From Phoronis australis (Eukaryota; Animalia; Phoronida), in contig NMRA01000636.1 in the NCBI GenBank assembly GCA_002633005.1, positions 44,171-108,170 on the forward strand: a DNA stretch of 64,000 nt, in the 5' to 3' direction. Below the pieces are notes generated by a model. The model did not search any database. It worked only from the letters and a program-made list of their open reading frames with translations, and was not told the DNA's origin. This document shows, piece after piece, positions 1,400-36,607 of the stretch. Within the stretch, counting starts at the first letter, position 1. Each line of letters starts with the position of its first letter. Position numbers and translations under genes: made by a program.

Positions 1400-2562
1400 T
1401 CACCAATATATGCCTGTATTCAAAACTTTATAAAAATCAGTTGAGAACCTTTGAAGATACACAGACTGGTAAACATAAAAAACTAAAATTGCCACTAGGG
1501 GCACACCAAAAGTTAGATCTGTCCAAAAGTCGTCCGTTGTCAACATCATATAAATACACTTGCTAACTTAAGTAAAGATCCTGCATACGTTTTATGAGAT
1601 ACAGCGACGAGCGCAAAAAAATGCCACTACGAGGCGCCACAGTAGTCGTACTCTTCGGAAAATTATCGTCAGCCATCCACTTCGCAGTAGAAACATACAT
1701 GCCAATTTTCACAATTATTCTGAAAGTGGTTTGGTTGATAGATGAGTGGACTCCAAAAAACATACTCGAAAACAGTTAAAGTGGCCACTAGGTGGTGCAA
1801 ACTAGGTCGAATCCATCTGAAAACAGAGAGATAGCGTCACCTCATAAACAGATGCCTGTATGCCAAATTTTATGAAAATACTTTGAGGACCTTTGAACAT
1901 ACAGAGGTAAACGCAAAAAGATGAAATTGCCACTAGGTGGCACACCAGTAGTCAGATCCATCCGAAAGTCGTTGTCGTGAATTGTCAACATCATATAAAT
2001 ACACTTACTAAATTTAGTAAAGATCCTTCGAACAGTTTAAAAGATACAGCCATAGGTGCAAAAAAAACACAACTGCCACTAGGAGGCACCACAGTAGTCA
2101 AAATCATTGGAAAATCATCGTCAGCCGTCTACTTCGTAGTCAGAACATACGTACCAATTTTCACAATCATCCTTCAAAAGGTTTGGTTGATAGAGGGGTG
2201 GATGCAAAAAAAAAGTAAAATTGGTCACTAGGTGGCACAAACTACGTTGAATCCATCCGAAAATGGGAGGACAGCGTCATCTCACTAATAGGTGCCTATA
2301 TATCAAATTTTATGAAAATCCGATCTGGACTTTTGAAGATACAGAGGTAAACCTAAAAAACTAAAATTGCCAATAGGGAGCACACTGGTAGTCGGATCCG
2401 TCCGAAAGTTCGCTCATGCCGTCCCATCCATAGTAGGAACACATGTGCAAAATTTCATGAAGATACGTCAAGGCGTTTTAGAGATAGAGCAGCGGACGCC
2501 GGACGGACAGACGGAAATGACGGCATAATGCATCCACATATAATTATGTGGGCGCATAAAAA
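1400..2562 (-). mobile_element. Helentron-associated (HINE/DINE-like) element with a CTCF-motif monomer array
   Basis: About 145-bp monomers with CCACTAG(G/A/T)GGC, (GACG/GACA)n microsatellite, terminal hairpin atgcatccacat...atgtgggcgcat and an A-run. Confidence 0.75.
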
Positions 2563-2876
2563 TTCTGTATATCTTGAACTTTAGCAATCTTATTCGCCAA
2601 ACACCGCAGGTTATGAAAGTGCAAGAGAATTTCTCAACAGATGATATTGATTTGAGATTAATAACCTGAGCTGGTTATTCTCTTAGTGAGAGACAGCAAT
2701 TAGGTAGAATTCCACAAAACAGATAGGCATAAAAGCACAAATTAAAATGTTGACAAAACTTAACAAGAATGAAACCCCAATTCTTATCCTGATGAAAAAA
2801 GATATTCTGTTGCACTTAAGCACATTGAACCACTGCCTAATTTATTTTTTGGAAATTGTTATTGTAGATACACTAC

Positions 2877-2993
2877 ATGTTTCGTTTCCATTTCCCTCCA
2901 TTTGGCCAGTTCTTTTGATGCCAGCTCATCCGATGACATCCTCACTAACGTGAACGGCTTTATCTCCTCATTAAGAATCTTACGGAACAGACC
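2877..2993 (-). CDS. DIDO1: DIDO1-like coding exon 16, end of TFIIS-M (GLFRKILNEEIKPFTLVRMSSDELASKELAKWRE); gene continues beyond the window start
   Basis: LVRMS.EELAS.EL..WR motif; cttgcag acceptor; the donor position is slightly uncertain. Confidence 0.9.
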
Positions 2994-3625
2994 CTGCAAG
3001 ACAAGAACAACTTCAGAGTGACACCATATAAACAAATTACTAATGTCTAACAATGAAATTTATCTGAAGGTTGAACCAGGTAGTAACATTTGCAAAGTAG
3101 CACTAAATAAAATATAGTGAACCAAGATAGCAACAACAAGTATTTTAACCATGTTAAAAGGCCTTCAGGCTCTCCGCAGTAAAAAATATTGTAAAACCTA
3201 GTCATATTGTTCCGAATTTTAGTGGGGAATGACCGTAATTATTTCACATGAGAAATATGTCAAAGTAGCTCTGTATTTCACCGTTGGATAAAACAGTTAT
3301 AACCAAGTATGTCTGATAACAAACTTTTACTTTTTCACCAAGCCACATCACAGCAATACCAAGGTAATCAGAAAGAAAATATGTTATCAATTCAAATCCA
3401 CATCATTAAGAGGAGCCCAAAAATAAACATGGAACTCTCCACGTCACTTTTAAAAAAATTTGCAAAACATTACCTCACTGGAAAATCGGCAAAAACAGAC
3501 CAAAAATTAAAATCAGTTAATACTTTTCTACAGATTTCCAATTTGCTTCACAATTTTCCCCATATCTTCAACAGAACTTAATTTTGACAAGATTTAGTCA
3601 CTTGTTTCTTTTAAGTAGAGAGTAC

Positions 3626-3785
3626 CTCATTCTTAGAATCCTTAATGTTGAACGCCAATGAGCGATATCGTGCCTTGTACTTAGAGCCACAGTCTCCATA
3701 GAATTTGAATAGTTCTTCCTCAATATGAATCACAATCTTTTTTATCTCGCTGTGAGACAGCACAATGTCATAGGCACTGTCAGAC
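3626..3785 (-). CDS. DIDO1: DIDO1-like coding exon 15, TFIIS-M (IEEELFKFYGDCGSKYKARYRSLAFNIKDSKNE)
   Basis: TFIIS-M signature KYK..YRSL.FNxKD.KN; tatag acceptor, GAG|gtactc donor, phase 2/0. Confidence 0.95.
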
Positions 3786-3894
3786 CTATAAAAGTGGCAT
3801 TAGACAGACATATAACTTTTTAAGGGTTGAAGGTTTTCCAAGAATGCCAAACAATCATCAGTTGGAGTTAGATATGGATGCTTCTAATCATTAA

Positions 3895-6800
3895 TGCACG
3901 AGCAACGCGAAAAGTTGATATGCGCCCATGGCTGCAACGCAAACCCTGTGTTTATAATGGTGTTTTTTAGTTCATAAAATGGCCATTAGATGGCGCAGAA
4001 TACATCAAACCTGTCTGAAATTGGGAAAGCACTGCCGCCTTTCTATTACAAAACCACTCGTCAAATTTCAACAAAATACACCTGGGAACTCCAAAGATAC
4101 AGAGGCAGGTGTAAAAAAACAAACTGCCATTAGAAGGCACAGCAGTAATCGAATCCGTCCATCTGTTGTCAAATAAAAAGGAATAGACTTGAAAAATTGT
4201 TGCAAGGCTAGGCTTGTGCAAGTTGCTTGCCAGCACGCCATTGGCGAATTCTGAGTGGCACTGGCGATGGTAGAGCTAAGTTCATTTAACATCTTGGTGA
4301 ATGTTTTCGCAACTTGACAATAAAAATTAATTTCGGGAACCCTATTCGTGTGTTGACCCAAGAATCAGCTCAAATCAAGTCGTGGCGCAAACAACATTCT
4401 TACTTCAATTCTGAGTCCTAAAAATAGCAAGTGAATGTTCCACTTCATGCCCGTACCCCTGAAGTCACTCTTTTAACGCAACAAAATGTTCAACTGTGTA
4501 GGGGGGTCAGCGCTCTCAGTAGTGGCGATTTCTCGCTTCAGAGTGAGATCTCGTGTAAGTGCTGCCGCTTGTCGTCTTCAAGTGCGATGTCAAAATGACG
4601 AATAGAAGACTATTTCAGAGGCAAACGCGACCCAGATGAACGATATTAAATTACATGGGGGATAAACTGAACTGAGCTGAGCTGTCTCAAACATACAACA
4701 TGAACTCAAGGTTTCAATTTATCATTTCTCATATTACATGAATCTCTCCCAATTCATTACTAACTTTCACCTTTCAGTGCATAATTTGCCGTGTCAAATA
4801 TTGTTTCAGACTTGACAGGTTTTCTTTTCAAGGAGTAAAAGGCACAGACAACGCTGAGAAGAACAAGTTTGTTATCTATTTTTAAATCAAAATACGTCAC
4901 ATGTCTTACCTACTCAGCTCGCTAACAGTCGCAAGTGGCCGGCATACCCCACCATAACCCAGGGATAGGGGGAACCCTGTCCAATTTTCTTTAAGGTCAA
5001 CATCATTTAAATACCCATGTATGGCCGGCGAACCCAAACAGTAACTCGCGTATAGGGAGAACCTCAGCCTAAACTGTTTAGTTCAAAATAAAACCTATGT
5101 TGGCTGACATCCCGCCAACTTATTAGGTTGATATATGACCTTGGAATGATGATCATTCGTTTTTTTTCCTTAAGGCAAACATCTTTTCTTATAGTACATT
5201 ATGAAAAGGACCTGTGCATAACATAAAAAATAAAAAGTTTGGTCCGTGTAACTATTTTTATCAAATGTGGGGTCTGGAAAAGAGAAAGTATGTGGCTAAT
5301 AATTTTTGAAAATGGCTAAAAGTTTTCAGACGCTTTAGCCATTTTGGCTAATACCTTAAAAAGTGTACCATGAGCGTAGCAAGGGGTTTAGTAGATACAG
5401 CCATAGATGCAAAAATAATGTCACTAGGAGGCACCACAGTAATTGGACCCATATGAAAATCCACGGTAGTCGTGCTCATGTCGGATGGAACACATCAGCC
5501 AGTTTTCATAATGGTCCTCTGAGTGGTTTGGCTGATACAAAATACAGATTGAAAAATAAAATTGTGCACAGTATTTTTTTTACTTTGAAAAGGAAAACTT
5601 TATTAGTTCTGTAAAGCCCCACTGCAAGCGCTGTTTTTCGTGACGTCCCTGAGGCTGTGCAGCACAAAGAGATATAGGTCATTAGCCATGCGAGTACGTA
5701 GCCCAGTCGACAGATCAACATTTCATTTTTCTTTCCTGTGACGTTGATTCATCCCGGGGCCTAGCCAGCTAGCTATATGAAGACTATCTTCAAAATACGG
5801 CTAGGTGCAAGTACCACTGTGTGTTGAGCTCCATTAGACTCCGAAATTTCACGTAGTCCGGGTAGTTCCGCTTGTCAAGTCGTCGCGAAACTTAGATCAA
5901 CATGTATAGGTATAAACCGACAGGGGAACATGCAAATATATGGGTGTCAACCGACACTCAATTTGCCCGCTGGAGCTGTTTAAGTGAAAAACAATCTAGT
6001 GAACGTTATTTTATTTCATAATTCTCAGCCTTTTGTAACAAAGAAAACAGTACGCTCAACGTGCTATTTCCTAAAATTTTGCGACATCTATCGGGAGATG
6101 ACGACAGTTTCGCAGGAGCAAAATGCTTTATGAAATTCGGTTTCCTGGTATTAAAATACTAAAAATTTGAAAGGAAATGAAATCAGCTCTAATAACTTGT
6201 TGTGACACGTACACAACTTCGATCGCTTGTTATACTGGGAAGAAGAATAACTCGGGGAACGAAACTGGCCAATAAGGCAACAGGTGACAACACTGAAAGC
6301 CGACCTTAAAGAGTGCATCAAAATTTTAGCTGCAGAGTGAACGGCAGAACGCCAATTTTGTCCACCTGTAAATAATTTAGTTTACTCAAGGAAGAGCGTA
6401 ATTTTTAACGACACAAAAAAATTTATTTTATCAGTTTTTACCCATGTCGGTGCAATGGCTGTATATTTAGTATACAGCTTGCACCAAGGCAAGGCTACGC
6501 AGTCGGGGCCCTTTCCTGGCTGGTGCCGAGAACAGCATCGTTCCACTAATATTCAACACTACATGGCAGTAAACTTGTATTATGAACTTTTGAGAGCCGA
6601 GATCGCAGACAAGTTATACACATTAAGCACAGTTTTGCAGCCGAGAGGCATTCACCCAATGAGCTACATACATAATAAGCTTAATTTATCTCTATTCACC
6701 CCCGGTACAGCCTCAGTGACGTCAGACGCGCATAAGCCAACAGGAATTAACATTGAAAACAAAAACAAAAATGTGAAAAAATAACAAAGATGTGATTTCT

Positions 6801-7585
6801 GATATAGATTTTATTCATAAATTAAATCACATTAAAAATGCATGTTATTGTACTTCAGGAACCTTTTAAAGAGATACAGGCGTGGATGCAAAAACAAAAA
6901 ATTGCCACTGTAGGTTGCCACAGTAGTCTAACACATCTGAAAATCAGTGACAGCTGCGGTCTTCTCATTAGGAAAGCATCTGCCAATTTCCAAAATGATC
7001 CTTTGAACAGTGTGGCAAACAGGAAGGTGGACATCAAAAACGTATACAAAACTTTTTAAAATGGCCATCAGGAAGCACAGAATACATCAAAACCATCAGA
7101 AAACAGGAAGNNNNNNNNNNNNNNNNNNNNNNNNNNNNNNNNGGATATGCTACACAGAAAACTTTCTTGACATGTTTTCTGGAAATTTAAAAGGATTATT
7201 TGTAAACAAACGTCTTTGTTTCTGGAAAACAAAAAGTAAAACTACTTGTTCAACCCTTTATCGATATTGAACTTGGATAAATTTTATATCAACATGAACC
7301 TCATTTATTCAAGATGTATTGCTGAAAATTTGGTAAGTATATGTTTACTAATGACTGAGTGATGAGGTTTTAATTATGTGCAGTGCTTGTGACCTAGTTT
7401 TGAGTGAAATACCCTCCGACTTCAAGGGGGTAGACATTCCACAGCTCAGCCAGGCCACTAAGCAATTTATTCCATATGGTGCTCAGGGTCGAATGAGTTA
7501 AGGAGATACAGCTGCGGACGCCAGATGCCCAGACAGAGATGTTGACAATACGTACCCACACATAAATACGAGGGCGCATAAAAAC
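3895..7585 (-). mobile_element. Same HINE family, fragmented by unclassified insertions (about 4200-5375 and 5575-6850) and an N gap
   Basis: Terminal caacgc..atgcgccca at about 3904-3928, collinear monomer fragments at 3970-4200, 5375-5570 and 6850-7110, other terminus gggcgcataaaaa at 7572-7585. Confidence 0.55.
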
Positions 7586-7734
7586 TAGTTAACCAAGTCC
7601 TGAACAATGAAATCAAACCACAGAACCACCAGACGGGTACTATGTTAAGAAGACTGGCTATCATTTCCAGCTTATACAGTGGTTCACTTGATGTCATCAA
7701 GTGAAAATTGTCCTGTCTAATTACCAATCTGTAC

Positions 7735-7864
7735 CTGGCAATCAATATGTCCTTCAGGTGTTTCCTCACATTCAGTCGCACTTCACTAGGTCCTGATGAG
7801 CTGGCCTCCTGCTTGGGTTGCACAGCATGTGCTTCCTTCTTCAGCTCTTCCTTAATTTCTTTCC
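7735..7864 (-). CDS. DIDO1: DIDO1-like coding exon 14, start of TFIIS-M (EVRLNVRKHLKDILIAR)
   Basis: tttaag acceptor, AG|gtacag donor, phase 1/2. Confidence 0.88.
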
Positions 7865-8781
7865 CTTAAAAATAAAGAAAATGAAAATGTCTGCAGGAAA
7901 ATAAAAACAGCCATAAGCAATGACTTTCACCAAATTCTGGAGCAACTAGACTTTTTAAAGTCTAGTAGCTTAAAAGCTTCACCAAGCAAAATGTTAAGTA
8001 CTACAAAGTAAACGTGTAAACACTGAATTTAAAACTGGGCAGCAAAGCAATAGCAGGATTCTCCCTGATATTAGCAGAAATCTGTAAAATTTCATGTAGC
8101 TGAGACATAGGACTTAATAGACATAGATGCAGACACAAAAACTAAATTGCCACTAGGGAGAGCAATACTTGTCGGATCTGCCCAAGAGTTGACATGTTGG
8201 TGCTCTTCACAAAATTTCATGAAGATCCACCAAAGGCCTGGGAGAAACAGCGGCAGACATCAGACGTCCTACAGATTATAGAAACATGCATCCAAGCACA
8301 CTGGCAATTTCTGATAGTAAGCTCTATAGCATCAAATGTTTTTCACTTTTCTAAGTAATACTCTGAATATAAGCCAGTGACATAGACAAGGAGTGAGTAT
8401 CAATATGTGCAGTTAGAAGAGTTTATAGTACCAATTAAGTTCAATTTATTTTAGCGATAAATGAAATCATGCAGAAATATAACAATGAAGTTATGTTTAT
8501 TTTACAGGTTAACAAACCCCATGCTGAAATAAACAAAGTCAATAAAAGTACAATATATTTTAGAGATAAACCAAAACCGAGCAGTCCCGTATCCCATATA
8601 GCATTATTTTGTTCGACAATTTTCGTTTTGGGAAACCATACAAGATTCTTTTTTGGCTCCAAATGTAGGCTCATGTGCATTTATTCAGAACATTTTCCAA
8701 ATATAGGCCAATAGGCCTATTTTTGGGAGGACATGTTTGCGGAAATTCCCTGCAGAAGAATGGTGCCCATTATATATTGAA

Positions 8782-11203
8782 CAGGGCTCGACATAATGAG
8801 CCGCAGGTAGCATTTGCGACCTAAAATTTGTAAATGTGAGCTGAGATTTTCGTCAGCTTGTATCAAGGCGCCAAAAGCGACCTGGAATTTCCAACGTATG
8901 CGAGCTGAGTTTTTACATTTCTCAGCAGATACCTGGCAAATATAAAGCAACTCTAATTGTTAATCCAACCGAGAACAGCCCTACCAGTGACTTGTAAAAA
9001 AGTCACGTGAACATGGGATATGCAGAATCCGTCTTTGACATGTTTCATTGGCTAACATTTTTGGCCACTTCTGCAAATTTCCGGATTACGGCCGGAAAGT
9101 TTCAGGCCACTGCATCACACGTGATAAAACATCACAAAACAACGGTGTTTCTTAAGCGATCAACTTACCAAACTTTGTGGTAGACAAATTTTTCGCGTAA
9201 GGTGTCCTTATTACATGTACCAAATATCCACGACAATGTCTCTGCGGCACTGGTCGGTCCCATTGTTAGCGCGCAAGCTGTCCTAGCAGACAATCGTGAC
9301 TTAGAGATGTGCGTCTCGTTTTTTATCGCATATGACAGCCAAAGTGAAAATGACAAGACTATTAATTGCCAAACGACAGCCACGTCTTTACTTTCAGTTG
9401 CCAAGAAATTCTCAAACCCCTTTACTTGTTTCTGGGGCTACGTGGGCGATATATGATTTGTCTTTCACACATTGTTGCCAACGTTAAGTGTAGGCCTACT
9501 CCACCTATTCAAGGGCGTGAACTCATGCGTGCGCACCACTTCAAAGCTGCACATCAAAGGAGAACAGCGACAGTCCCAAGTGAAAGAATATACCGGCTTG
9601 GCTCTGTTAAGCACCCGGGTACGTGCCAGTGGTTTATTTGAAAACGAACTCATAGATTCCCGGGGGTTACATTAATAAAAGACCCGACGCTTTACGATAT
9701 TCCCCGGGACCGATATAATGAAGAAATGATATTTCCTGTGACAATGTTTCCCGAGGTCGATGTTCCCTAAACCCTATGCCTGTAGCCAGCTATTGCAACT
9801 AAACGGATACTAGATGCAAAATTGTGGTCAGCGAACTTTTTATTCTTCTAACTTTTAGCTTCCCGGACCACCGTCGCCATAAAATGTTCAGACTCCAAGA
9901 GAAACAACCTTGTTCCGGCCGAAGCGGGCAATTAAAACAAAATTGCTCGGAGTGGCTAAAAAGGGCCGGTACAGTGCACGTGGTAACGATATCCAGAAAG
10001 TCACCCTTACTCGATGGAGTTTGCCACGCAAAATCGTATTATTATAACATTTCTTACCATTGCAGTCTTAATATCTTATTACAGCAAACACTCCGGTTAA
10101 CGAATATGCTCACGCACAAGCCTACTCCCTACCTTTGTGTTTCATAATAAGCACTCACTGATCTACTAAGCGTTCCCCCTCAACTTTAGAGAATTTCCAA
10201 CTAAGCGCCCACAGTTAAGGCTAGCGCTCATCATAGCGCTTCACAAACGACCGCGCATGGTTTAAAATTGACACACAGCCTATAGTGTGTCACTCTCATT
10301 TTACACAGCAAATTCTGTTTTCAAAAAATCAAAAAACGTCTTTTCTCACTACATAGAAACCAAATCCCGGCTTTATTTCATACCTCCGAAATAAAGTTAA
10401 CACTAGCAATGACACGCCTGTCGTATTGTGACTGACCTATTTTTCCTGTACTTGGAATGTATTGAGGCGCAAACTCGAATTACCTGATGGAAACCCGCAA
10501 GGAGTCGAGAATTATTTCGAGGCTACTCATTTCATGGAAAACTAAATGTTGAATACGTAAACAGCATAGGTACCATTTTTTTGTAAAATTTGCTCTGAAT
10601 TGTTACCGTGCATCCAAATACGTCATTCGGTTGGGCATCGTTTCACGGTTTTTTAACAAATGTTTTTCAGACGTCGAGTTAAGCTGCAAAATTTGGGTCG
10701 TGAACAAAAAGTGGAGGGAATTTGCACTCTGAGTTAGTATGGATCTTTAACGACTTTGATGACAGCCAGTAGCAGGTCAGACCTAGCAAAATTGTGGATA
10801 CTTTTTCAACGGGCATTTTCTCCCTTTTCACATCGCAAACTTAGGTGCTCGAATGCACGTGTCAGTTAGACAGCACTGGTTCAACTTTCACGTCGGGAAC
10901 TTGCCTTGCATTTTAGAGCCTTTCAGTGGCTGTCGTTAAGAACAGTAACGCCGTAGCTGCATGAAAGAACAGTAACGCCGTACCTGCATGAAAGAACTCA
11001 ATTTTGCTGAAATTTGTAAGTATGTAACGCTGCAGGTAAGAGCATTTTCTCGATGATTTAAAAACAATCAATTTTGGCGCCAAAATGGAGGAAAAATTTG
11101 CGACCTGGCATTTATGAATACAAGCTGGATTTTGAAAATGCGACCTGGGATTTTGACTAAGTCGCAAAATGCGACCTGGAGATTTTAATAGTGTCGAGCC
11201 CTG
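8782..11203. mobile_element. Non-autonomous TIR element with 5-bp TSD (hAT5-like)
   Basis: TIR CAGGGCTCGACA/TGTCGAGCCCTG flanked by TTGAA on both sides; homologous to 44469-49679. Confidence 0.8.
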
Positions 11204-11246
11204 TTGAAGCTAATAATCACTGATATACGAGATGATGTGAGCTTAC

Positions 11247-11445
11247 GGTAAAATTTGGAGCTGGAAATATAACCCTGCTGTTGCCCTGGACGCAACACTT
11301 CAAAAGTGGGGTTTTTCTCCAGCCACAGTTTTAAATTTGCATGGGTTGGTGCATTAGGTCCCGTGACCAGTCGGCCTGTGTGGCGCTCCATCACGACGAT
11401 ACGATCCAACACCTTGTCGAGAACTTTGCCAGCCTCAGGCTTGCC
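11247..11445 (-). CDS. DIDO1: DIDO1-like coding exon 13, BRK domain (RIVVMERHTGRLVTGPNAPTHANLKLWLEKNPTFEV)
   Basis: BRK consensus RV.V....G..L.G..AP....L..WL..NP.FEV; tctag acceptor, C|gtaagc donor, phase 0/1. Confidence 0.92.
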
Positions 11446-11914
11446 CTAGATTGGAAGAAAGAAGGCCAGTTAAAAGAAGCACAAATGAGAAAAATTCAAC
11501 CTGTTTCAAGGACAAATCAGGTATTTTCCTTTAATTCTTTTCTTCCATCAAATTGCAAATAAAAATATAACGTTTGACTTTCTGTAACACACACACTCAA
11601 TAAGGAATCCAGACACTCACAAATTAAAAGGAACTGGAAAGGCCCATCTGTTACTGCCTTAAATCAATTCAGTTTTTGTACAGGTTCTATTTTCCTGAGG
11701 ATAATCATCAATAGACTGATTAAAAGAACTTCAATTAGAACTAGGGCTGTGTTGACGAGGATTCAAGTTCACATTGACTTAGTCACAATTACTTTCAATC
11801 ACTGAAGAGCTAACGTCACTTACAAGCTAGAGATAGTGCGATCACATGCTATGATCGTGATACACAGTGACATCTTCTAAGGCTTAGGTGACCTTAACAC
11901 ACAAGATACAAGCA

Positions 11915-17103: not shown

Positions 17104-17153
17104 TTTTATTAACACACCTTCAACATACAAATGTACACACACAATAATCTTAC

Positions 17154-24549: not shown

Positions 24550-24555
24550 AGTGGC

Positions 24556-24989: not shown

Positions 24990-25394
24990 GTGCCAAATTT
25001 CATCATAATCCAACACAAAAGTTTTCAAGTTATAGAGCAGAAACACGGACAACAGTACAACCGGACAACAACATAAAGTGACAGCAATATGCGACCACAT
25101 ATATGCGTGGGTGCATAACAATTACTGCAACTAGTAGGACATTTATGGTATTTGATGTCTTTTTGCATGTAACTTGGCCCTTTTAAAGCTGTGCAATTTT
25201 ATAATCACTTTGGCCACTTCTATATTAAAAGGCAAGAGAGGTGTCATCTATGCATGCACAATATCAGCTTATTGCTTCTGATGAGTTCCAGGCACAAAAA
25301 GGTCCCTCAAGAGGCTTTAGAAATTAAGATACAAGCAGAAAACCATACGCCTAGACCGAGATGGTGGAAACTTAGTATACACAGTTATGCGTAC

Positions 25395-25516
25395 CTTTGC
25401 AGACAGGACATATCCACTCCTCGTCATTCTTCTCCATTGCCACGCCCCTAGCCTTAGTGATCTCCACACAGTCACCATGGTACCACTCATCACATTTGTC
25501 ACAGCAAATCATGAAT
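25395..25516 (-). CDS. DIDO1: DIDO1-like coding exon 9, PHD finger (FMICCDKCDEWYHGDCVEIT...WICPVCK)
   Basis: Completes the C4HC3 PHD signature with the previous exon; ccag acceptor, G|gtacgc donor, phase 2/1. Confidence 0.95.
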
Positions 25517-27428: not shown

Positions 27429-27614
27429 AACAGATATACTTCTCAATGCGAATTACCTGTCCCCGTGAGGCTCTCTACGGATGCACCACAACAGATATAC
27501 TTCTCAATGCTAATTACCTGTCCCCGTGAGGCTCTCTACGGATGCACCACAACAGATATACTTCTCAATGCTAATTACCTGTCCCCGTGAGGCTCTCTAC
27601 AGATGCACCACAAC
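27429..27614. repeat. 61-bp tandem triplication spanning an exon end and its donor site
   Basis: Unit aacagatatacttctcaatgctaattacctgtccccgtgaggctctctacggatgcaccac. Confidence 0.95.
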
Positions 27615-27842
27615 TTGGTTGGGTCATCCTCCTCCTCCCAATCTTCATCACCCTCGTCATCCTCATAACTAAGACCATCATTCAAATCTGAATCATCTGA
27701 TTCCACATCCTTAGACTGAGTTCCAAACTCTTTTTTCTCAGTCTTTCCTGACACTTCCTTGATAGGTGGTTTAGCTTTGTCCTTGTCTGGGTTTTCTGGT
27801 TTCTTATCAGGAGACTTGTGTTTTGTCTCTTCTTTTCTGTGG
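27579..27842 (-). CDS. DIDO1: DIDO1-like coding exon 8, acidic tract and start of PHD finger (DDPTKLWCICREPHGDR)
   Basis: ORF 27575-27880; donor AG|gtaatt; acceptor gives an exon start at 27842 (gag) or in-frame at 27836 (cag); phase 2/2. Confidence 0.9.
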
Positions 27843-28127
27843 CTCAACAAAATAAAAACAACCTTCAGATACTTTCTCAAATCATGGCATTCAAAAACAA
27901 GTTGGTCTCATAAGTAAACCACAGCTTCCAGGACATCAGTGTGGTCTATTTACTTATAACCGTGTCTTATTTCACACTTTAACACTGTGAACACATCACA
28001 AGCAAGTGAACAATGTATCTCTTATTTTTACACCAGCATCCACATTGGCTGCACAGTTTTGATAACATCTGAAGCCAGCAAGTATATTTTTTGAAACTTC
28101 ATCTTTTGATTTTATTTAACTAAATCG

Positions 28128-28400
28128 AGGCTGCATTCCGTAGACCAAGTTTCTTTTTCTGGAAACCAAGTTCTTGCGAGAAAAGCAAGATCACGCAAAA
28201 TCATGCAAGTGAAAGGCAAATACTGTGCAAAAATGCTCAAGATCTTACTAGCGTACTATAGCAAAATGGCAGCCATAGAATTGATTGGTCAGAAAGTTTC
28301 GAATGTTGGATTATGGGATGAATTTCATTATTTATGAAATAGGATTCCCCGTTTCCGGTCCATAAGAGAATTACTGTCTTGGTTCTACGGAATGTAGCCC
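28128..28400. mobile_element. Small MITE
   Basis: TIR ggctgcattccgtagaccaag / cttggttctacggaatgtagcc. Confidence 0.55.
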
Positions 28401-28650
28401 AGTTTCATAAACTTCAGAGCTGACTTCTGTACTCAGATTACCCAGGAGTAAATACACCTGTCACTAGAGATTATAAGCTTTGCCAATATCAATAAAGGAC
28501 AACACCTTATTTCTAGTACAAATGAGAAGAACATTTATTCCTACTGTGTGTAGTACTCTGGGATTAATTCGTGTTCCACGTGATAAAATGAAACTGGAAA
28601 GTCTCAGTAACATGCCCGCAACTTCTCAACTATAAACATACACCACTTAC

Positions 28651-28784
28651 CCACTGTGCTCTTTCTTCGACAGTTCCCTGCTGTCTTTTTGCATGTTCTT
28701 ATCTTTGTCATGGCCAGACGAGCTGTCTCTTCTCTTAAAGACACCAGGCATCTTACTAGATTCTGCTTCGTCTTCTTCCTTCAC
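28651..28784 (-). CDS. DIDO1: DIDO1-like coding exon 7 (VKEEDEAESSK...)
   Basis: atttag acceptor, GG|gtaagt donor, 134 nt, phase 0/2. Confidence 0.8.
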
Positions 28785-29171
28785 CTAAATAAGCACAAGT
28801 TACTCTTTAATTTATTTCACAAACCATCAAAACTTAAAATAATCAGTAACAAAAATCAAACCATCATAACTCCTATGCAGCAAACAAACAAACCAACGAA
28901 TGAACAAATAAATAAAGACTACAATCAATTTGCACAATATAACCATTACTCGCAAATTATTGTCCATAAAAACTAAAATGTTTAGACAGTAGAGTACAAT
29001 TAATAACATAAAACGTCACTACAGACTGCACACAATTGCCAAAGACAGGTCTAATGCTGAACTAGAAACTGTTCACTATTGCCAAAGACAGGTCTAATGC
29101 TGAACAAAATATACAATACACCATACTGCTGTCCTACCATTATGAGGACCTCCAAAGTAGATACTCCTTAC

Positions 29172-29444
29172 CTTTCCATGGTCGTTCTTGTTAACTGGAA
29201 TGTCTGGTGTAAACAGCACGGGTTCGTCAGGCATCATCATCCCCATACTTTGAGAACGCTTACAATCTGGTTTCACCTTTTTCTTAACCAATTCTGTTGG
29301 TGATGGTGCTTGCTGTCTATCCTTGGATCTACCTTGTTCTTTCAATTTCTGTTTCTTTAAAGGTTTCTCAGAGTGTGACTCGTCTGTTTTGTGCTTAGCA
29401 CGGTCTTTGACACTTGACATTGTAGAATCAGACTTGGGTCCTTC
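29172..29444 (-). CDS. DIDO1: DIDO1-like coding exon 6 (EGPKSDS...KNDHGK)
   Basis: Within ORF 29094-29474; taccag acceptor, AAG|gtaagg donor, 273 nt. Confidence 0.8.
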
Positions 29445-29814
29445 CTGGTAAAATATAGTTTGGAAATTCGTCATTATGTGAACTTAATACAGCTTTCTTT
29501 GGCAAAGTAGTCCTCAACACTCAAGTTCAACACCAGTTCCACAAATAGGTCACAAGTTCTGTCATAAAAAGTACCAGTTGGTACAAATAGGAACTGCAGG
29601 TTGTATGTTTTTGTTGGTGAAGATGAAAATTTGTTCTGCTACAGATGAAAACACCATCATTATTTTGAAATCTGAAATTTTTCAAAATTTCGTGGAATTT
29701 TGTGAAACTACACCATTAGAAAGAGTTTTGACGCCTATATTTTTAAACTGGTCGCGGGATTTTTAAACAGGACGCTGGATTTTTAAACAGGACGCGGGAC
29801 ATTTAAACAGGATG

Positions 29815-30372
29815 ATTTAGGAGATACAGCGATAGGCGGGAAAAAAAACTGCCACTAGGAGGCGCCACAGTAGTCGAAATCGTCGGAAAATCATCGTCAA
29901 CCGTCCTCTACATAGTAAGCATATACATGCCAATTTTCACAATCATCCTTTGAGCGGTTTGGTTGATAGAGGGGTGGACGCACAAAAACAGACTCGAAAA
30001 CACTAAAAATGGCCACTAGGTGGCGCAAACTATGTCGAATCCATCTGAAAACGGGAGGATAACGTCATCTCACTAATAAGTGCCTACATACCAAATTTCA
30101 TGAAAATCTGTTCAGGACTTTTGAAGATACAAAGGTAAGCGTAAAAAACTAAAATTGCCACTAGGGGGCACACCGGTAGTCGGATCCGTCCGAAAGTTCG
30201 TACATGCCGTCCCATTCATGAATGGAACATATGTGCCAAATTTCATGAACATATGTCAAAGGGTTTTGGAGATAGAGCAGCGGACGCCGGACGCCAGACG
30301 GACGCCGCCCGTACGGACGGATGGAGATGACGGCATAATGCATCCACATATAAATATGTGGGCGCATAAAAA
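29815..30372 (-). mobile_element. HINE-family copy, near-identical to 13650-14197
   Basis: Three monomers, microsatellite and terminal hairpin; ends about 20 bp from the exon 5 donor. Confidence 0.8.
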
Positions 30373-30392
30373 GCATGCACAATTCAACTTAC

Positions 30393-30461
30393 CTTAAGTG
30401 ATATATCTACTTCCACAGTAACTTTTAACTGTTTAGGCTTGGTAGCTTCTTGCTTGTCCGG
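30393..30461 (-). CDS. DIDO1: DIDO1-like coding exon 5 (PDKQEATKPKQLKVTVEVDISLK)
   Basis: cttttcag acceptor, AAG|gtaagt donor, 69 nt, phase 0/0. Confidence 0.7.
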
Positions 30462-30755
30462 CTGAAAAGGCAAGTTCAAATGTTGCTCAAACAACAAAAC
30501 CATTAAAGGAGAATGCCATCCGATTTAATTAATCTTTTTTACAGTCTTAATCGGTCTATACCCAAATCACCTTGTATACATTCAATCTTACCTTGCCGAG
30601 AGGTGTCGTGTTCACCTCAGAACTTGGAATTACCCATGACAAAAAAGAGGAAATTTTTTAATGCCCCAAATAAGTATTGCCATCTAAACAACCATACCTC
30701 AACAGTTAGAAAGAAATCACAAGATGCCCTGTAACAGTGTCGGGTTGGCAAAACG

Positions 30756-30998
30756 CACTCATCTTAAGCAGTACCTGACATCCACTCATCTTAAGCAGTA
30801 CCTGACATCCACACATCATAAGCAGTACCTGACATCCACTCATCTTAAGCAGTACCTGACATCCACTCATCTTAAGCAGTACCTGACATCCACTCATTTT
30901 AAGCAGTACCTGACATCCACTCATTTTAAGCAGTACCTGACATCCACTCATCTTAAGCAGTACCTGACATCCACTCATCTTAAGCAGTACCTGACATC
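30756..30998. repeat. 27-bp minisatellite, about 9 copies
   Basis: Unit actcatcttaagcagtacctgacatcc. Confidence 0.95.
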
Positions 30999-32477
30999 AT
31001 TTCAGCAACAATAATGAAGGCAATTAGATGCAATAAAAGATATTTTTTAACTTAAAATGATAAAGATAATGATGCAAAATTTGCAGTGTGAGTGACAGAA
31101 GCTTATTCTTGATTTGCTGCAGGGAGACCTGTGTAATTATTTTCAGTTCTTATAATTATGATACAAGATTATAAAAAAATTTGAAAATCGATCCAGAGAT
31201 TAATAACTGGAAAGCCTTAAATATATATATACATTTAATTCCAACAAAAAAATTAATTCCAATGCAAATGGAAAAAAGTCAAGACGAAAACCTGTGGCTC
31301 ATACCCCAACTATAGCATGGAAGAAATGAAAGTAAAAAACAACATACTTTAAACTACAGAATACATCAATCACAATCCTAAGTTGGCCTAACTTTTCAGT
31401 TTCAAACTCAAACTGTAATTACAGGAGTTAATCGTTCATATGCCACGCTGGTGTGGAGCAAACTATGTGACATAAGAAATAACTACAAGGACACTCAAAA
31501 TAGGTTGGCAGAATTTATAAACAATGGCTTAGACCAATCAGATCATTCAGAACCTGTTTACGTGACCCCTTTTCTCTTGAATTGCAAAACTCGAGTCGGT
31601 CAAAATAAGACTTTTTAACAAAATAAAACATGAAAAATGTCAAAATAAATAGGAATACATCAACAGCAATTTAAAACACAGTTGCAGTAAAGAAAACAGT
31701 CCCATTTCGGCAGCACGTAGAAAATCGGATTCGGGCCTAGCAGTAGCAGCCAACTTGGCAACTGCCAGTAAGGGTTTGCACGCGCCCAGGATCAAACAAA
31801 AGAATTTCATCCATAACTCACATCCCATGATTCCAATCCAATGAATTACCAGTTAAGGTTGAAATTCCTTCCAGAAAGTGTTTTTCTTTCGTTTCATCGT
31901 TTTCAGGTGGTCCTCTGCAATTCAGCCACGCAGGCCATAACTGTCCCCCTGTCAAAGTTTATAGCCCACAAACCCTGACTTTTGTTGTTTGCGAACATAT
32001 TGACTGTTTCTTTTATCCACTTTTCCACAAAATATTCTGTCTACTCCAAGCTCCACGCATTAATCGCACTATTTGTCACCACGATTTAATACCAAATGCA
32101 GATGCCATTGCTGAACCATGCTATCCCAGGTGCCCCGGCAATTACGATTTCCGTTCCTTCGAAACATAAAGAGCAATTTCCGCTTTTCAAGTGGTCGGCA
32201 ACGCCACAGCTAGAAACCAATGTCGCGGAAATTTTATGGCAAATCTGATTTTTTTCCACGGAAATATAACAAAAATGCACACAGGAAATAAGAGAAAAAA
32301 GTGGAAATCCGTGTTTCTGTGAAAAATTCCAAGCCTTGACGGAGACAAGGGCAATATGCACCCACCAAAAATACAATATGACGTATCAATTGAAACTGCA
32401 TCAATCTTTGATAACAATAACATCATTTATTAATGTTTAATTACCTGATTATTATGATTATTATAATGCTCACTAAC

Positions 32478-32613
32478 CTCTTCATGTTTTTTCTTCTCTC
32501 CTTCCTTCTGCTCTTGCAACTTCCTCATGGCCTTGCGTTCAGCTTCTATGTTTTCCTGGCGAATCTTTTCTGCCATTGCTCTCTGCTCAGCCTCGATGAC
32601 ACGTGTTGAACGC
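32478..32613 (-). CDS. DIDO1: DIDO1-like coding exon 4 (RSTRVIEAEQRAMAEKIRQENIEAERK..., coiled-coil-like)
   Basis: ctttcag acceptor, GAG|gttagt donor, 136 nt, phase 2/0. Confidence 0.8.
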
Positions 32614-34016
32614 CTGAAAGGAAGACTATCAATAATAACACGACTGGATTAAATGTCATCAAGAAGTGGATACACATCAGTTAAAACATGCAGAATCCAA
32701 GCTGGCATGAAGCAGCCATCACTGTGACTGAATGACTTACCAGGGCTATTGCTTAAAAAACAAATCAAATCCAGCACAAGATTTCACATTTTCTTTCTTA
32801 TGTAAACATTTATCCCATACGCGTTGAATCTGCCGAGGGAAATACGGCCATGTAATAAAGTTTTCCGTATTCTTTCCGTATTCACTTCCTACACTACTTC
32901 AACAGTGACCTCTGACATGGAAAGTTCAAAAGGTAGGTCAATGTTGACTCAACGTCGTTAGCCGGTTCGATCACCAAACTTTCAGAAATAGTTTAAAGTA
33001 ATACAATTATAGCAGTGTAAATAACGCTCGACATACTACCAGGTCTCAATCGTAACGTCTGGAACAGGACTTTAATTATATGACAGTTCCGTCTCAGTTT
33101 TCATTTGCCAAATATTTTATCATCTGCAACTCATGCGCCGATTCCTCGGTAACTACAATGTCAAATAATGTTGTTGTTTAATTATTTTCAGGAGATGTTA
33201 CACGTTCAATGAAAAGTTACTCTTGTTTTCATCTTTGTTATGTCTTTTCAAGTATTAAATCGTCACATTTAAAACTGTTTCTTTTACTAGAGAAAACTTG
33301 CAGCCTAACGCACAAGTACATAGTTATAGGATGTCATCCGCCACGTGAACAGTCTGAGTGAAATATTTAAAAAATCTGCGGAAAAAATGAAAGAAACTTA
33401 GGAATTCGAAGCGCATGAGATAAATACAAAACGTACTTTGATTGACTACGTATCTTGATTGGCATACATGAAATACATTATTCCGTGTATCGACCCAGAC
33501 CGAAGCGGAATAATGTCTCGTGGGATATTACTTCATGTACGCCACTCTCGGCACATTTTGTGCGTTTATTTGTTAATAATTGTTGACCTGGAGGTCTTCT
33601 GGAAATCAGTTTTTGACTGAGCAGGCACCTCAATCAAAATAAATAGCAGGTGCACCAGCAGTTAGTTTAAAAACCTTCTTTGGGTTTTACTTTTTACCAT
33701 GTCAACAGAGAGGATCAAGATCAGATCCAATTTCCCATCAATTTCCAGGGATCAAACAAGGTACTGGACTGGGAGATTATGGACAACTTGGAGACCAACA
33801 GGGAAAAGATGGTGATGAGTAACAGATAATTAGCAAGACAAAATCTCATTCAGTGTTATAATAAAGTTAGTTTTTAAAAACAAACTGGATTAATTATATT
33901 TGAAAAACAAAATGTTGACTAAATCATTCTACTCATACAAACCAACTTTTGATTTAAGCCACTTACTGTTAAAAATGTGTTTCATCTTGTACCTTACGCA
34001 GTTTAGAAGTGAAACC

Positions 34017-34172
34017 TGGCGTGCGTTCAGTAGACGCTAGGACCTACGCTAGGACCTAGCTAAAACCTAGTCAAAGTCACGTGTTCTTATTTACAATGCA
34101 CGGCAATATCTCACGTAATCTCGCGAAGTCTTGCTTTTTAGCGAGGTCCTAGCGTTACTGAACGGGAGGCTG
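34017..34172. mobile_element. Small MITE-like inverted repeat
   Basis: cgttcagtagacgctaggacct ... aggtcctagcgttactgaacg. Confidence 0.45.
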
Positions 34173-34525
34173 GGCACTTCCTTTTTTCTTCAAACCAAGC
34201 TTACAACACTTATTTCGACTACGGAGCAACTTGAGATCAAGCCCATAAGTGACCTAAATCAACACTTGATTCTTTGACAGAAAGCACAGGCTTCATATCG
34301 CTTTTTCCAAATATTGAGGAAAATCTCTTTCATCTGCTTTTCATGAAAAAAATGGAATCTATGAACCATTTTAATTACAAAGAATCTTGCCTTAGGAAGA
34401 GTCTTCCCAACATTACATGACAGAATGGTCAGCACAATCATCTCAAACATCACCCTTTTTGAAAATAATAAAATTGTGAGAGAAATAATCCAGAGAAAAA
34501 ATAACACATTTATAGCCATTATCAC

Positions 34526-34704
34526 CTTGGTGACAGTATATCCTCTGCGGCCTCATTGGATCTTTTCTTGCCATTTGCTTTTTTCCCCGAAGTCTCTGCA
34601 GGGCTGTCTGAGCTTTTTGTCTCAGTCTCCCTGGCTCCAGTTTCAGCTGGATCAGCCTTGACATACGAGTGCTCCAGGGGGGCATACCGTTTCACTACCT
34701 CGCC
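34526..34704 (-). CDS. DIDO1: DIDO1-like coding exon 3 (GEVVKRYAPLEHSYVKAD...)
   Basis: ctgtag acceptor, AG|gtgata donor, 179 nt, phase 0/2, open frame. Confidence 0.75.
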
Positions 34705-34789
34705 CTACAGGTACAATATGTAAATAAATGTAAATTATGACTGAACCAATCAGAAAGGTGACGTACTCTATGGGTACTCTGCAGTCAAT

Positions 34790-35038
34790 ATCATTTTTAA
34801 CCTACAGAGTATCATCTAGAAACATGTCACTAAACGGAAGGGGAAAGTATATTGCGCATTCATTGATTTTAGCAAGGCATTTGATAGTGTAGATATTTCC
34901 TGTTTATCTTATGCCCAAAGGTTTGCATGGAAAAATGTTTAACATTTTGCACAGTATGTATGACTCCACAATCATGTGTTATGGTACAGTCACAGACCAC
35001 GCCCTACTTTAACTGTGGAGTTGGTGTCTGGCAAGGAT
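34790..35038 (+). pseudogene. Degenerate non-LTR reverse transcriptase fragment
   Basis: Translates to GKVYCAFIDFSKAFDSVD and FNCGVGVWQG (RT motifs) with frameshifts. Confidence 0.7.
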
Positions 35039-35423
35039 CAGGGCTTGGAATGACCAATGACAAAAAGCGCGGAAATTAGATACCAAATTGTGCTACAAGT
35101 ACCTTCTGCGTTCGCGGTAAGTTCAAAATGGCGGTGTGTTCTTCGGGTGCGAATCCTGAGTCGCGTTTATTTAAGCTTTATTCGATTACAGTTTATGTAT
35201 TAGTTATGGGGTAGGTACTTCTTGGATCCTTATAACACCCTCTAACCATGTAATAAGGGTTAACAACGTGTGAGACCAGGACTTTAAAGAGGGATTGGTT
35301 TGGTTGATAGAGGCGCGGCTGCCAAGAACAGTCTATATAACAGGACAAATGGCCAATAGATGTTGAATCCAGTAAAAAAACAGGTAAATGTAATTTCAGT
35401 AGAAAGCTATTTACTAAACTTCA

Positions 35424-36607
35424 TAACAAGAGAAATGCAGAGCGTTGAAATGCGCCCACGAATGCATTGCAAATGGTGTGCTTTTAGGGTTATTTATTTG
35501 TATCATAAAAATGGCCACTAGATGGCGCAAAAACATACAATCCATCCAAAAATAGGAACATGCCATATTCCAAAGGAAACAAAGGAAAACAGAATAAAAT
35601 GACATTGCCACTAGTGGGCACAGAGTCCGTTGGATCTGCTTGAAAGTCGTCGTCTGTTGTTACCTTCATATAAATACACTTACTAAATTCAGTAAAGATC
35701 CTGCAATGGGGATAAAACTATGGGCGCAAAACAAAAATAACACTAGGAGGCGCCACATTAGACAGTCACCATCATCAAAGGTCGTCTTCACACTGAGAAC
35801 ATATATGCCAATTTTCAAATGATTTGGTTGATACAGGGGTGGACACCAAAAACAAGATTTGAAAACAGCACCCGTAGTCAACATCATATACCGTAATCGT
35901 TCGGGTTAACGCCCTGGGCGGTTAAATTGGCGAATCCAAAAAATCGGGGGAGGGCGGTTAACTGAGCAGTGGGCGGTTAAATCGAAAATCCACCTAAAGT
36001 AGGGGATGGGCGGTTAACCGAACATGGGCGCTTATTACGACAGACAACCGCCCTGGGCGGTTAATCTTACCTGACGATCTAAATCCCGACACGACAATCA
36101 TACTCGGAACGCGTAGCCCCTTTCAAAGACCTTTATCGTCAGGTCGCCAAATGACTTTGAAAACGTCATAACAGCGGATGATCCCAACAAAGGTTCTCTT
36201 GCCCTCAGATTATTCATTCACTATTAAATTTACAAAATTGCTGAGTAAATAGCCCCGTGCCGTCCNCCTTTTCTTCAAGTTCATCCTTAGAGTGGTTTGG
36301 TTGATAGAGAGGTAGACGCACAAAACAGACTCCAAAACAGTAAAAAAGGCCACTAGGTGTTGCAAACTACGTCGAATCCATCCGAAAACAGGAGGTTAGT
36401 GTCATTTCACTAATAGGCGCCTACATAACAAATTTCATGAAAATCCGTTGACTTTTGAAGATAAAAAGGTAAGCGCAAAAAACTAAAATTGCCACTAGGG
36501 GACACACCGGTAGTTCGAACGTTCGCTCATGTGCAAAATTTCATGAACATAGCTCAATCAGTTTTGGAAATAGAGCAGCGGACGCCGGACGCTGGGCGCA
36601 TAAAAAT
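35424..36607 (-). mobile_element. HINE-family copy with both termini, interrupted by a pogo-like MITE
   Basis: aacaagag..gcgttgaaatgcgcccac at the left, tgggcgcataaaaa at the right (sub-terminal inverted repeat pair). Confidence 0.7.
35891..36265. mobile_element. Partial inverted copy of the same pogo-like MITE
   Basis: Near-identical reverse complement of 15600-15853; breaks at the single N at 36266. Confidence 0.75.

Follow-up and report, generated by a model that had tools for sequence, protein, structure and literature searches.

Schmidt et al. reportedly found in 2012 that rodent B2 SINEs carry CTCF sites. Shi et al. are said to have described, in 2023, Helitrons at supersized sperm loops of Xenopus tropicalis, and to judge by its title that work resembles the present case in linking a Helitron-class element to three-dimensional chromatin. 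In the lamprey, the CTCF sites borne by hAT-Tip100 #274 and other transposons were proven by ChIP (Kadota et al., 2017, PMC5504073). According to the parts of the literature on which we draw, CTCF is bilaterian-wide with some losses, and its motifs mark open chromatin in an annelid.

The closest structural relatives of the element described here are HINE/DINE-1 elements. In the sections of Thomas et al. (2014, PMC4067079) cited here, they are defined by subterminal inverted repeats (subTIRs) located 2–4 nt from the 5′ end and 38–60 bp from the 3′ end, an inverted repeat nested with the 5′ subTIR and followed by a microsatellite, a stem-loop 8–35 bp from the 3′ end, T's at both ends, a T-rich target without target-site duplication, and central tandem repeats. 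The Cg_HINE elements of Crassostrea gigas, as far as the cited part of their description goes (Vojvoda Zeljko et al., 2020, PMC7492417), are like the Phoronis element in being dispersed, in forming short satellite-like arrays of approximately nucleosome-sized monomers with fixed orientation within an element, and in having 3′-truncated tandem copies and insertions in genes. Unlike the Phoronis element, they are reported to be integrated in both orientations. In Caenorhabditis elegans, an animal without CTCF, intronic Helitron-derived tandem repeats (PATC minisatellite insulators) are proposed to hold active genes in an open state with few nucleosomes (bioRxiv 10.64898/2026.08.08.743475). The cited part of that work describes a protein-independent 10-bp periodicity that arises after insertion, whereas the Phoronis repeat has a protein-type motif that decays after insertion.

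Results

Structure of the element

We analyzed a window of 64,000 nucleotides from Phoronis australis (assembly GCA_002633005.1, contig NMRA01000636.1, positions 44,171 to 108,170). The repeats that dominate its first half belong to a high-copy non-autonomous Helentron of the HINE/DINE-1 type. A sequence-only reading of the window had called them Helentron-type, and the structure of the ends bears this out for a non-autonomous element. By the HINE convention the element is read on the minus strand, and its motif is antisense with respect to both the element itself and the host gene.

At the 5′ ends a T-run is followed by ATGCGCCCAC, and GTGGGCGCAT begins about 35–37 bp from the 3′ end. The exact core of these subTIRs is 10 bp, slightly shorter and closer to the end than described for HINEs (12–15 bp in the cited part of PMC4067079). 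The 5′ inverted repeat is nested with the subTIR, forms a hairpin (z = −2.4 and −2.8 in two copies, −0.9 in the diverged sister family HINE-2) and is followed by a GTCY/GTCC microsatellite tract. The 3′ stem-loop, CAAC(G/A)C-N4-5-G(C/T)GTTG followed by CTCTTGTT, is perfect in the copies at 23770 and 21296 and decayed in the others; folding of the whole 46–48-nt 3′ ends was not significant (z from −0.8 to −1.9). Both termini end in T's, the flanking sequence in the reads is rich in T on the strand of the element, and no target duplication is visible in the flanks of the two complete copies. The central tandem repeats have no coding capacity, the longest stop-free frame over them being a single one of 120 aa. 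The subTIRs, nested inverted repeat, microsatellite, central repeats and 3′ stem-loop are as in the cited description of HINE/DINE-1 (PMC4067079), and the T-flanked ends and apparent lack of a target duplication would agree with it. The Phoronis element departs from that description in two further respects: its central repeat is a higher-order trimer, and each subunit has a CTCF-consensus site.

The 5′ boundary at 30372 is common to 270 contigs with unlike flanks and the 3′ boundary at 35425 to 209 such contigs, and these sharp genome-wide boundaries support the identity of the element as a HINE. The spread through the genome that the earlier reading had supposed is supported: the copy number is very high, and the number of motifs, estimated roughly from read depth, is of the order of 10^5.

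The repeat unit is a trimer of about 440–451 bp (tandem periods of 440 and 451 in the window) composed of three subunits of 143–166 bp, each with one motif. The sequence-only reading had described a single array of simple monomers; its motif per subunit stands, while the unit is a trimer and the array resolves into about 10–12 separate insertions that cover about 27% of 1.4–36.6 kb.

Copies in the window

All copies lie on the minus strand. The first (1393..2562) has its 5′ end at 2562, with T-run, subTIR, inverted repeat and GTCY microsatellite, contains 2.3 trimers and lacks the 3′ end; its motifs start (CCAC, plus strand) at 1492, 1624, 1785, 1930, 2076, 2225 and 2370. A 3′-end piece at 3895..4160 (subTIR, degenerate hairpin and two terminal subunits, CCAC 3983 and 4127), a decayed subunit A at 5381..5564 (CCAC 5421) and decayed subunits with an assembly gap and a 5′ end at 7584 (6816..7584) may be one broken element. 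A decayed terminal subunit C with a 5′-end remnant follows at 8083..8293 (CCAC 8150).

A head-to-tail cluster occupies 11924..14544; its 3′ end is duplicated at 11924/12003, 5′ ends lie at 13210 and 14201, and the inner copies are truncated on the 3′ side. An unrelated element with terminal inverted repeats (TACCGTAATCG...), to which no strand is assigned and which contains an assembly gap, is located at 14545..15855, inserted about 7 bp before a subunit-C motif. The HINE copy that it interrupts continues at 15855..17103, with 2.1 trimers (CCAC on the plus strand at 15861, 16004, 16170, 16315, 16460, 16621 and 16767) and a 5′ end at 16960, beyond which a short extra subunit (CCAC 16964) is followed by a second 5′ end at 17103.

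Two copies belong to HINE-2: one at 21296..22100, with a duplicated 3′ end (CCAC 21537, 21688 and 21826), and one at 23770..25121, with both ends and with 39-bp and 31-bp minisatellites (CCAC 24057, 24128 and 24306). The best-preserved HINE 5′ half, at 29811..30372, comprises subunits A, B and C (CCAC 29852, 30013 and 30158), the microsatellite, the 5′ hairpin and the T-run. Both ends are also present in the copy at 35425..36605 (3′ end CTTGTT at 35425; CCAC 35515, 35608, 35740, 36350 and 36492), which is interrupted at 35886–36145 by the same inverted-repeat element as that at 14545..15855. Outside the interval to which the repeats had first been assigned, an old, motif-eroded subunit was found at 40314..40464; an isolated HINE 3′ end lies at 58302..58359. 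Both have the same orientation as the other copies.

A CTCF-type site in each subunit

The window was scanned with an approximate 19-bp CTCF matrix (JASPAR MA0139.1-like, maximum 29.8 bits). At p<1e-5 it gave 39 matches on the plus strand and none on the minus strand, all within 1.5–36.5 kb, while 30 dinucleotide shuffles gave a mean of 1.5 and a maximum of 4 matches on both strands. At p<1e-4 there were 47 matches on the plus and 3 on the minus strand within this interval. A regular expression for the core with up to three mismatches found 37 sites on the plus strand and none on the minus strand. The estimate of about 40–45 cores, all on the plus strand between 1.5 and 36.5 kb, was thus confirmed, as was their resemblance to the CTCF core consensus: every subunit contains a consensus site, scoring 23–25.5 of 29.8 bits (p from 1e-8 to 1e-9 with this approximate matrix). 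The plus-strand examples are CTGCCACTAGGAGGCGCCA in subunit A (29849..29867, 23.1 bits), TGGCCACTAGGTGGCGCAA in subunit B (30010..30028, 25.5 bits), TTGCCACTAGGGGGCACAC in subunit C (30155..30173, 23.3 bits) and TGGCCACTAGATGGCGCAA in terminal subunit D (35512..35530, 24.1 bits).

The six CCAC starts from 16004 to 16767 first listed proved exact, with spacings of 166, 145, 145, 161 and 146 bp. The nucleosome-like length of the repeat, to which the earlier reading had given weight, is ordinary for HINE central repeats. In the cited part of PMC7492417 the oyster monomers, which have no such motif, measure 160–180 bp in 51% of cases, and we do not take the length of the monomer to indicate phasing by CTCF.

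The motif was also sought elsewhere. Four 7-mers occurred at most 142 times in the first 400 letters of about 7,150 Cg_HINE array entries from the material cited (PMC7492417); these oyster arrays are without the motif, which is thus not a generic HINE part. There were no matches in 10 supplementary files of PMC4067079 (42,774 characters, among which the element sequences may not be included). In metagenome contigs an exact 21-base pattern occurred at 17 loci, and in none of them does similarity to the window extend past the motif. One of these loci (L002) has a 119-bp repeat that contains the motif; it was rejected as a homologue, since its alignment to the HINE subunits is within the shuffle range.

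Conservation between and within subunits

Among seven subunit types the 14-bp core is identical at 11–14 of 14 positions, against 38–57% identity outside the core in 20 of 21 pairs; subunits D and E and HINE-2 were cut out by the motif, which favours its conservation, while A, B and C were not. The expectation that the motif is more conserved than the rest of the monomer is thus borne out between subunits. Subunits A–D differ only at matrix positions 1, 2, 11, 12, 16, 18 and 19, all of low information, and their mean motif score is 24.0, compared with 15.4±2.3 for an equal number of random changes (p=2e-5). Within subunits other boxes, for example AAATTTCATGAAAA, are equally conserved, and the three motif windows rank only 45, 49 and 117 of 441.

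Mutations were counted in 16 aligned stretches of this one window, some from the same element; seven of 23 were excluded as other subunits or as too short. Variants shared between copies, which include recurrent CpG changes and conversion, affect 19 of 461 core positions (4.1%) versus 394 of 4345 outside (9.1%; p=1.5e-4). Private variants are equally frequent in the cores (23/461, 5.0%) and outside (222/4345, 5.1%; p=1.0), and the count for high-information positions is 12/263; across the 16 stretches there is no sign of purifying selection on the motif at individual genomic copies. The CpG of the motif is altered in 12 of 23 cases and other CpGs in 115 of 233, so that inserted copies have no sign of protection. 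Of the 30 motif copies that were aligned, 26 remain matches at p<1e-5. Because shared variants avoid the core while private variants do not, selection therefore acted on the transposing masters and not on inserted copies. This argues for self-service, the option of self-protection raised in the sequence-only reading, and against a co-opted insulator.

Alternatively, the motif might go back to a single capture of a host CTCF site that multiplied along with the repeat, stayed uniform through concerted evolution and serves neither the element nor its host. Helitrons do capture host sequence, as noted in the cited part of PMC7492417, and inserted copies decay neutrally. However, 14 bp would have to be homogenised by conversion even as the remaining ~135 bp diverged to 38–57% identity, and conversion would not restrict variation to tolerated positions; we find this history quite improbable.

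It is also rather unlikely, if less so, that the box is recognised by the Rep/helicase of the element or by a host zinc-finger protein other than CTCF, or acts as a tandem-expansion signal, and matches CTCF incidentally. Selection at the level of the replicating element is what a transposition signal would show, and A-rich and AAATTTCAT boxes near the motif are conserved as well. Against such a box stand the match to a 19-bp CTCF matrix at p 1e-8 to 1e-9, variation limited to positions that CTCF tolerates, the terminal position of Helentron signals in the cited description (PMC4067079) and the oyster arrays that lack the box.

Host gene and orientation of the copies

HINE copies sit in the introns of a minus-strand DIDO1/PHF3-like gene (2864..42330, ends approximate), with a PHD exon at ~25387–25515, TFIIS_M exons at ~3620–3790 and ~2865–2996, and further exons. 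The exons are covered by RNA reads, and in a HMMER search the nearest named homologues were bilaterian; a word-index protein search with one exon gave no match. In every copy within the gene the motif faces the promoter side. Stranded RNA was available from three runs of one study, in which 97–99% of HINE-family reads have the strand relation seen at this gene; a few strongly expressed host genes could weigh heavily in this proportion. This one-strand RNA bias is a new observation.

The bias is 32–137:1 for HINE and 4–8:1 for an inverted-repeat family whose A/T skew is the same. As this second A-skewed family is also biased, CTCF need not be the cause. The A-rich strand has 4–17 poly(A)-signal variants per copy, compared with 0–6 on the other strand. 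The copies are intronic, and it is the T-rich strand of the element that is transcribed there; this one-way orientation likely arose mainly because copies in the opposite, A-rich orientation were lost or avoided, not because of CTCF. The co-orientation pointed out in the sequence-only reading is no more than head-to-tail repetition within an element, and between elements it follows the direction of transcription.

Directional insertion onto a T-rich non-template strand exposed in transcription, or purging of one CTCF orientation that is harmful in gene bodies, would account for the stronger bias of HINE, and T-rich sites are HINE targets according to the cited part of PMC4067079. Either remains somewhat doubtful, since in unique intron DNA the sense strand has no more than a 1.3–2.0-fold excess of T-runs, the bias of a family with symmetric ends indicates a shared composition-based filter, the poly(A)-signal variants favour the A-rich strand, and the same weighting by expressed hosts could affect these three runs. 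T-rich targeting as the sole cause was rejected on the T-run excess. Internal oligo-dT priming was rejected because it would enrich the A-rich strand, opposite to what is observed. A separate transcript of the element was rejected as well: neither the starts nor the ends of reads pile up on it, and reads enter unlike flanks at both termini, a test limited by the fragmented libraries.

The promoter-facing motifs in this gene, together with an RNA bias suggesting that this is general, would suit arrays co-opted by the host, in which inserted copies bind CTCF as directional barriers or promoter-facing loop anchors. So would the many copies that still pass the matrix threshold, the bound transposon-borne sites of the lamprey (PMC5504073) and CTCF sites at squid TAD borders, mentioned in the cited part of a review. 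Nevertheless, we consider such co-option, which the sequence-only reading had proposed as a mobile insulator or co-opted architecture, very unlikely. Private mutations are not depleted in the motif and its CpG is unprotected; the roughly 10^5 motifs exceed the 27,633–41,421 CTCF peaks given for the lamprey in the cited part of PMC5504073; and a housekeeping-type chromatin gene would have no evident need for ~40 intronic barriers. The analogy to directional loop barriers is weak, as published comparisons found no orientation-dependent CTCF looping in protostomes or echinoderms, and a loop-barrier role in an invertebrate is unlikely.

Discussion

The motif of this HINE may be kept between element lineages and decay freely in single copies because the element recruits CTCF for its own copying, a proposal that we regard as evenly balanced. 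Binding of host CTCF would keep the element's DNA accessible to a Rep/helicase provided in trans, which would copy it. CTCF is probably the binder. With CTCF molecules bound 143–166 bp apart, the free stretch between two of them would be too short for a 147-bp nucleosome, so that a bound array would be nucleosome-poor. If CTCF binds, masters with intact sites were somewhat more probably than not copied more often.

Like lamprey hAT-Tip100 #274 and rodent B2, this mobile family spreads canonical CTCF motifs genome-wide. Those systems differ in being vertebrate and ChIP-proven, with no tandem arrays in the cited part of PMC5504073, while the Phoronis family is an invertebrate rolling-circle element with 3–8 tandem predicted sites and with selection on the element. 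CTCF sites brought by transposons are usually interpreted as benefiting the host; in the present family the pattern of mutations puts selection on the transposon. Separating the two levels of selection makes it possible to test directly whether a mobile element recruits CTCF in order to replicate. A further question is why a DNA transposon is so nearly one-stranded in transcripts.

In its widest form the proposal is speculative and rather improbable: a rolling-circle parasite would have acquired its tandem CTCF sites in evolution as a means of staying open and would lodge in genes one way, so that ~10^5 predicted CTCF motifs in gene bodies, nearly all facing their own promoters, would be bound by real CTCF and would shape gene-body chromatin. 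If true, a transposon would have given the CTCF sites within the genes of an invertebrate a common polarity throughout the genome. The tens of thousands of natural CTCF-motif arrays, in one orientation in the genes of a probable lophotrochozoan, offer a natural experiment on the role of CTCF in animals without vertebrate-type looping.

Structure of the HINE family and its CTCF-type sites

The sequence-only reading had described a Helentron-type element at 1490–36505 as a mobile array of CTCF insulator sites. A pattern search of the window for cores with up to three mismatches confirmed that the motif is present, with 37 matches on the plus strand and none on the minus strand. A scan with a JASPAR MA0139.1-like CTCF matrix (column sums 908–913, mutually consistent) gave 39 matches at p < 1e-5, all on the plus strand and confined to 1.5–36.5 kb; 30 dinucleotide shuffles averaged 1.5 matches and reached at most 4. 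Relaxing the cut-off to p < 1e-4 gave 47 plus-strand and three minus-strand matches in this interval. The CCAC positions and spacings reported earlier proved exact on re-checking.

The repeat unit is a trimer of about 440–451 bp, whose subunits A, B and C contain the CTCF-type sites CTGCCACTAGGAGGCGC, TGGCCACTAGGTGGCGC and TTGCCACTAGGGGGCAC, respectively; additional subunits (D and E) are terminal, and the family has a diverged sister. A profile search revealed 65 subunit-like pieces in the window, all 65 on one strand, which group into about 10–12 separate insertions (for 10 HINE loci, one-strand placement has a p near 0.002 under a 50:50 null). Read on the minus strand, HINE starts with a T-run followed by the subTIR ATGCGCCCAC with a nested inverted repeat and a GTCY microsatellite, and ends with a complementary subTIR, a stem-loop of six pairs and CTCTTGTT; the 5' hairpin of its copies has z values of -2.4 and -2.8. 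This is the layout of DINE-1/HINE as defined by Thomas et al. (PMC4067079), and with such ends the assignment to Helentron-type elements stands. At the boundaries 30372 and 35425, respectively 270 and 209 contigs of sequencing run X1 exit into unlike flanks, and thus both termini are fixed genome-wide. Head-to-tail copies are truncated on the 3' side (13207, 14201, 16957), as described for Helitrons (PMC7492417).

Several other repeats were observed in the window. The complete sister-family copy contains two minisatellites in its body, 39-bp x3 and nearly perfect 31-bp x14, at 24432–24992. The second inverted-repeat family, with CAGGGCTTGGAAT... ends, is represented by four pieces in one orientation (18576–19081, 37929–38442, 32115–32339, 35039–35075), and its empty site at 37926–38438 is visible in RNA and DNA reads. 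It interrupts a decayed plus-strand coding remnant (36850–38760), presumably LINE-like, whose two open frames had no Pfam match. An element with TACCGTAATCG ends has two copies in the window (14545–15855 and 35886–36145), each within a HINE copy and opposite to the other in orientation. One of them lies about 7 bp before a subunit-C motif; possibly, this element favours HINE as a target. A third family of ~2.4 kb with CAGGGCTCGAC-type inverted ends is found at 8746–11210, 44468–46290 and 48741–49680, in one orientation.

Abundance and distribution

The summed contig depth of HINE is 12,000–57,000 times that of its flank which, since contig depth is not copy number, indicates only orders of magnitude, 10^4 for copies and about 10^5 for motifs. 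The family was also found in 150 and 171 contigs of two runs labelled as other organisms (X6 and X7), with subunit junctions identical to those of the window at 29805–30370 and the flanking gene absent; these are either relatives or traces of this host.

Among metagenome loci matching the exact 21-base motif pattern, L002 (45–340, an unrelated record) has three CTCF-type motifs in a tandem repeat of 119 bp. Its alignment with the HINE family had no significance, and it is possibly an independent case. In L016 (545–789) and L017 (577–789), each unit of a 34–35-bp minisatellite is a CTCF-type site (seven co-oriented matches), and the array adjoins a 71-bp repeat.

Selection on the motif

The 14-bp core is identical at 11–14 of 14 positions across seven subunit types, of which A, B and C were excised independently of the motif and D, E and the sister family by means of it. 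Outside the core, identity is 38–57% in 20 of 21 subunit pairs and 74% between two C variants. The matrix positions differing among A–D (1, 2, 11, 12, 16, 18, 19) are all of low information, and the mean A–D score is 24.0 vs 15.4 ± 2.3 under equally many random changes (p = 2e-5).

Within subunits, we compared 16 aligned stretches (seven of the 23 belonged to other subunit types or were too short). The motif had been taken for the best-conserved part of the monomer; mismatch is indeed lower in cores than outside (9.1% vs 14.4%), yet in a ranking of 441 the motif windows come only 45th, 49th and 117th, with A-rich boxes ahead.

Variants common to several copies stand for master lineages and are rarer in cores (19/461) than outside (394/4345; p = 1.5e-4), also at non-CpG G/C positions (10/284 vs 178/1284; p = 9e-8). 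Private variants, taken as an approximation of post-insertion decay, are equally frequent in both (23/461 and 222/4345; p = 1.0); at high-information motif positions they number 12/263. CpGs are altered in 12/23 cases in the motif and in 115/233 elsewhere, and the score effect per substitution is marginally milder than expected (p = 0.05). This split of shared and private mismatches, which we regard as decisive, indicates, in a small sample of partly dependent copies, that the CTCF-type site counted for the elements undergoing copying, and the window copies show no sign of its importance for the host.

Strand bias of HINE transcripts

The HINE copies at 3–39 kb are intronic; the gene that contains them is on the minus strand and encodes PHD and TFIIS_M domains. 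Ten homologues among 150 listed matches were looked up; seven of these have names, all of them DIDO1/PHF3 proteins, from molluscs, a brachiopod, a centipede and a tick. By these homologues the host belongs to the bilaterians and probably to the lophotrochozoans. The first coding exon of this DIDO1/PHF3-like gene is probably a long, low-complexity open frame of about 440 aa at 41013–42330 on the minus strand.

In X8, a stranded RNA run, reads from the exons of this gene are on "first mate +" (5.9–15.6 against 0–0.9), and HINE-family reads match them at 33.6:1 (97.1%). A second HINE copy shows ratios of 35.5, 32.5 and 136.8 in X8, X9 and X10, three samples from one study. Most HINE-family reads share <95% identity with the window copy and continue at either end into dissimilar flanks; hence this RNA derives from many copies within host transcripts.

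Control ratios are 0.8–1.1 for the nested inverted-repeat element (partly palindromic and so a weak control), 0.6–1.8 for the LINE-like remnant, 0.1–0.75 for the repeat at 35118–35284 and 4.1–8.1 for the second inverted-repeat family. Since the latter has a skew equal to that of HINE (A 0.33, T 0.23 on the plus strand) and a bias of its own, a general filter that disfavours A-rich sense strands probably accounts for part of the HINE bias. Each copy has 4–17 poly(A)-signal variants on the A-rich strand and 0–6 on the transcribed strand; in unique intron DNA, T-runs on the sense strand are in excess by only 1.3–2.0-fold. The remaining bias could come from directional insertion or from an orientation-specific effect of CTCF; if the vertebrate orientation convention is assumed, the HINE motifs point toward the promoter of the gene. 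In mammals, a bias in the orientation of intronic retroelements has been described, in a study that left out DNA transposons (PMC3088655).

Comparison with known systems and possible role of the sites

ChIP-proven CTCF sites carried by transposons are known in mammals. They are likewise described for lamprey hAT and LTR families (PMC5504073); in contrast, those of the Phoronis HINE are motif matches. Oyster HINEs also have nucleosome-sized central repeats, 51% of monomers being 160–180 bp (PMC7492417). However, four motif 7-mers are rare there, with only 142 occurrences in the first 400 letters of about 7,150 array cells, whereas here each subunit has a motif. Searches on Helentron/Helitron and CTCF, invertebrate CTCF and repeats, and Helitron orientation bias brought up no account of the combination among the matches listed (20 of 51 for orientation bias, 25 of 1,220 in one search on invertebrate CTCF and repeats), in mostly open-access literature and bioRxiv main texts.

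The CTCF motif is the top motif in the open chromatin of an annelid, without directional arrangement (PMC7854359). A 2026 preprint reports that CTCF sites of protostomes and echinoderms lack convergence bias, insulation and loops (10.64898/2026.10.19.760054), an echinoderm study agrees (PMC13317027), and a review describes the spiralian evidence as fragmentary, with one squid study in favour (PMC10658181). A role as loop barriers therefore has less support than a service to the element itself, and in view of the undepleted private variants in the motif, the claim of a mobile insulator is not supported.

Taken together, the feature is real, a HINE with tandem CTCF-consensus sites, element-level selection and a strong one-strand transcript bias. 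The reading we favour is that the sites serve the element itself, and we consider it fairly probable that CTCF binds the HINE array. With sites 143–166 bp apart and the known footprint size of CTCF, a 147-bp nucleosome would have no room between two bound sites, so that masters with intact sites would stay open and may be copied more frequently by Rep/helicase in trans.
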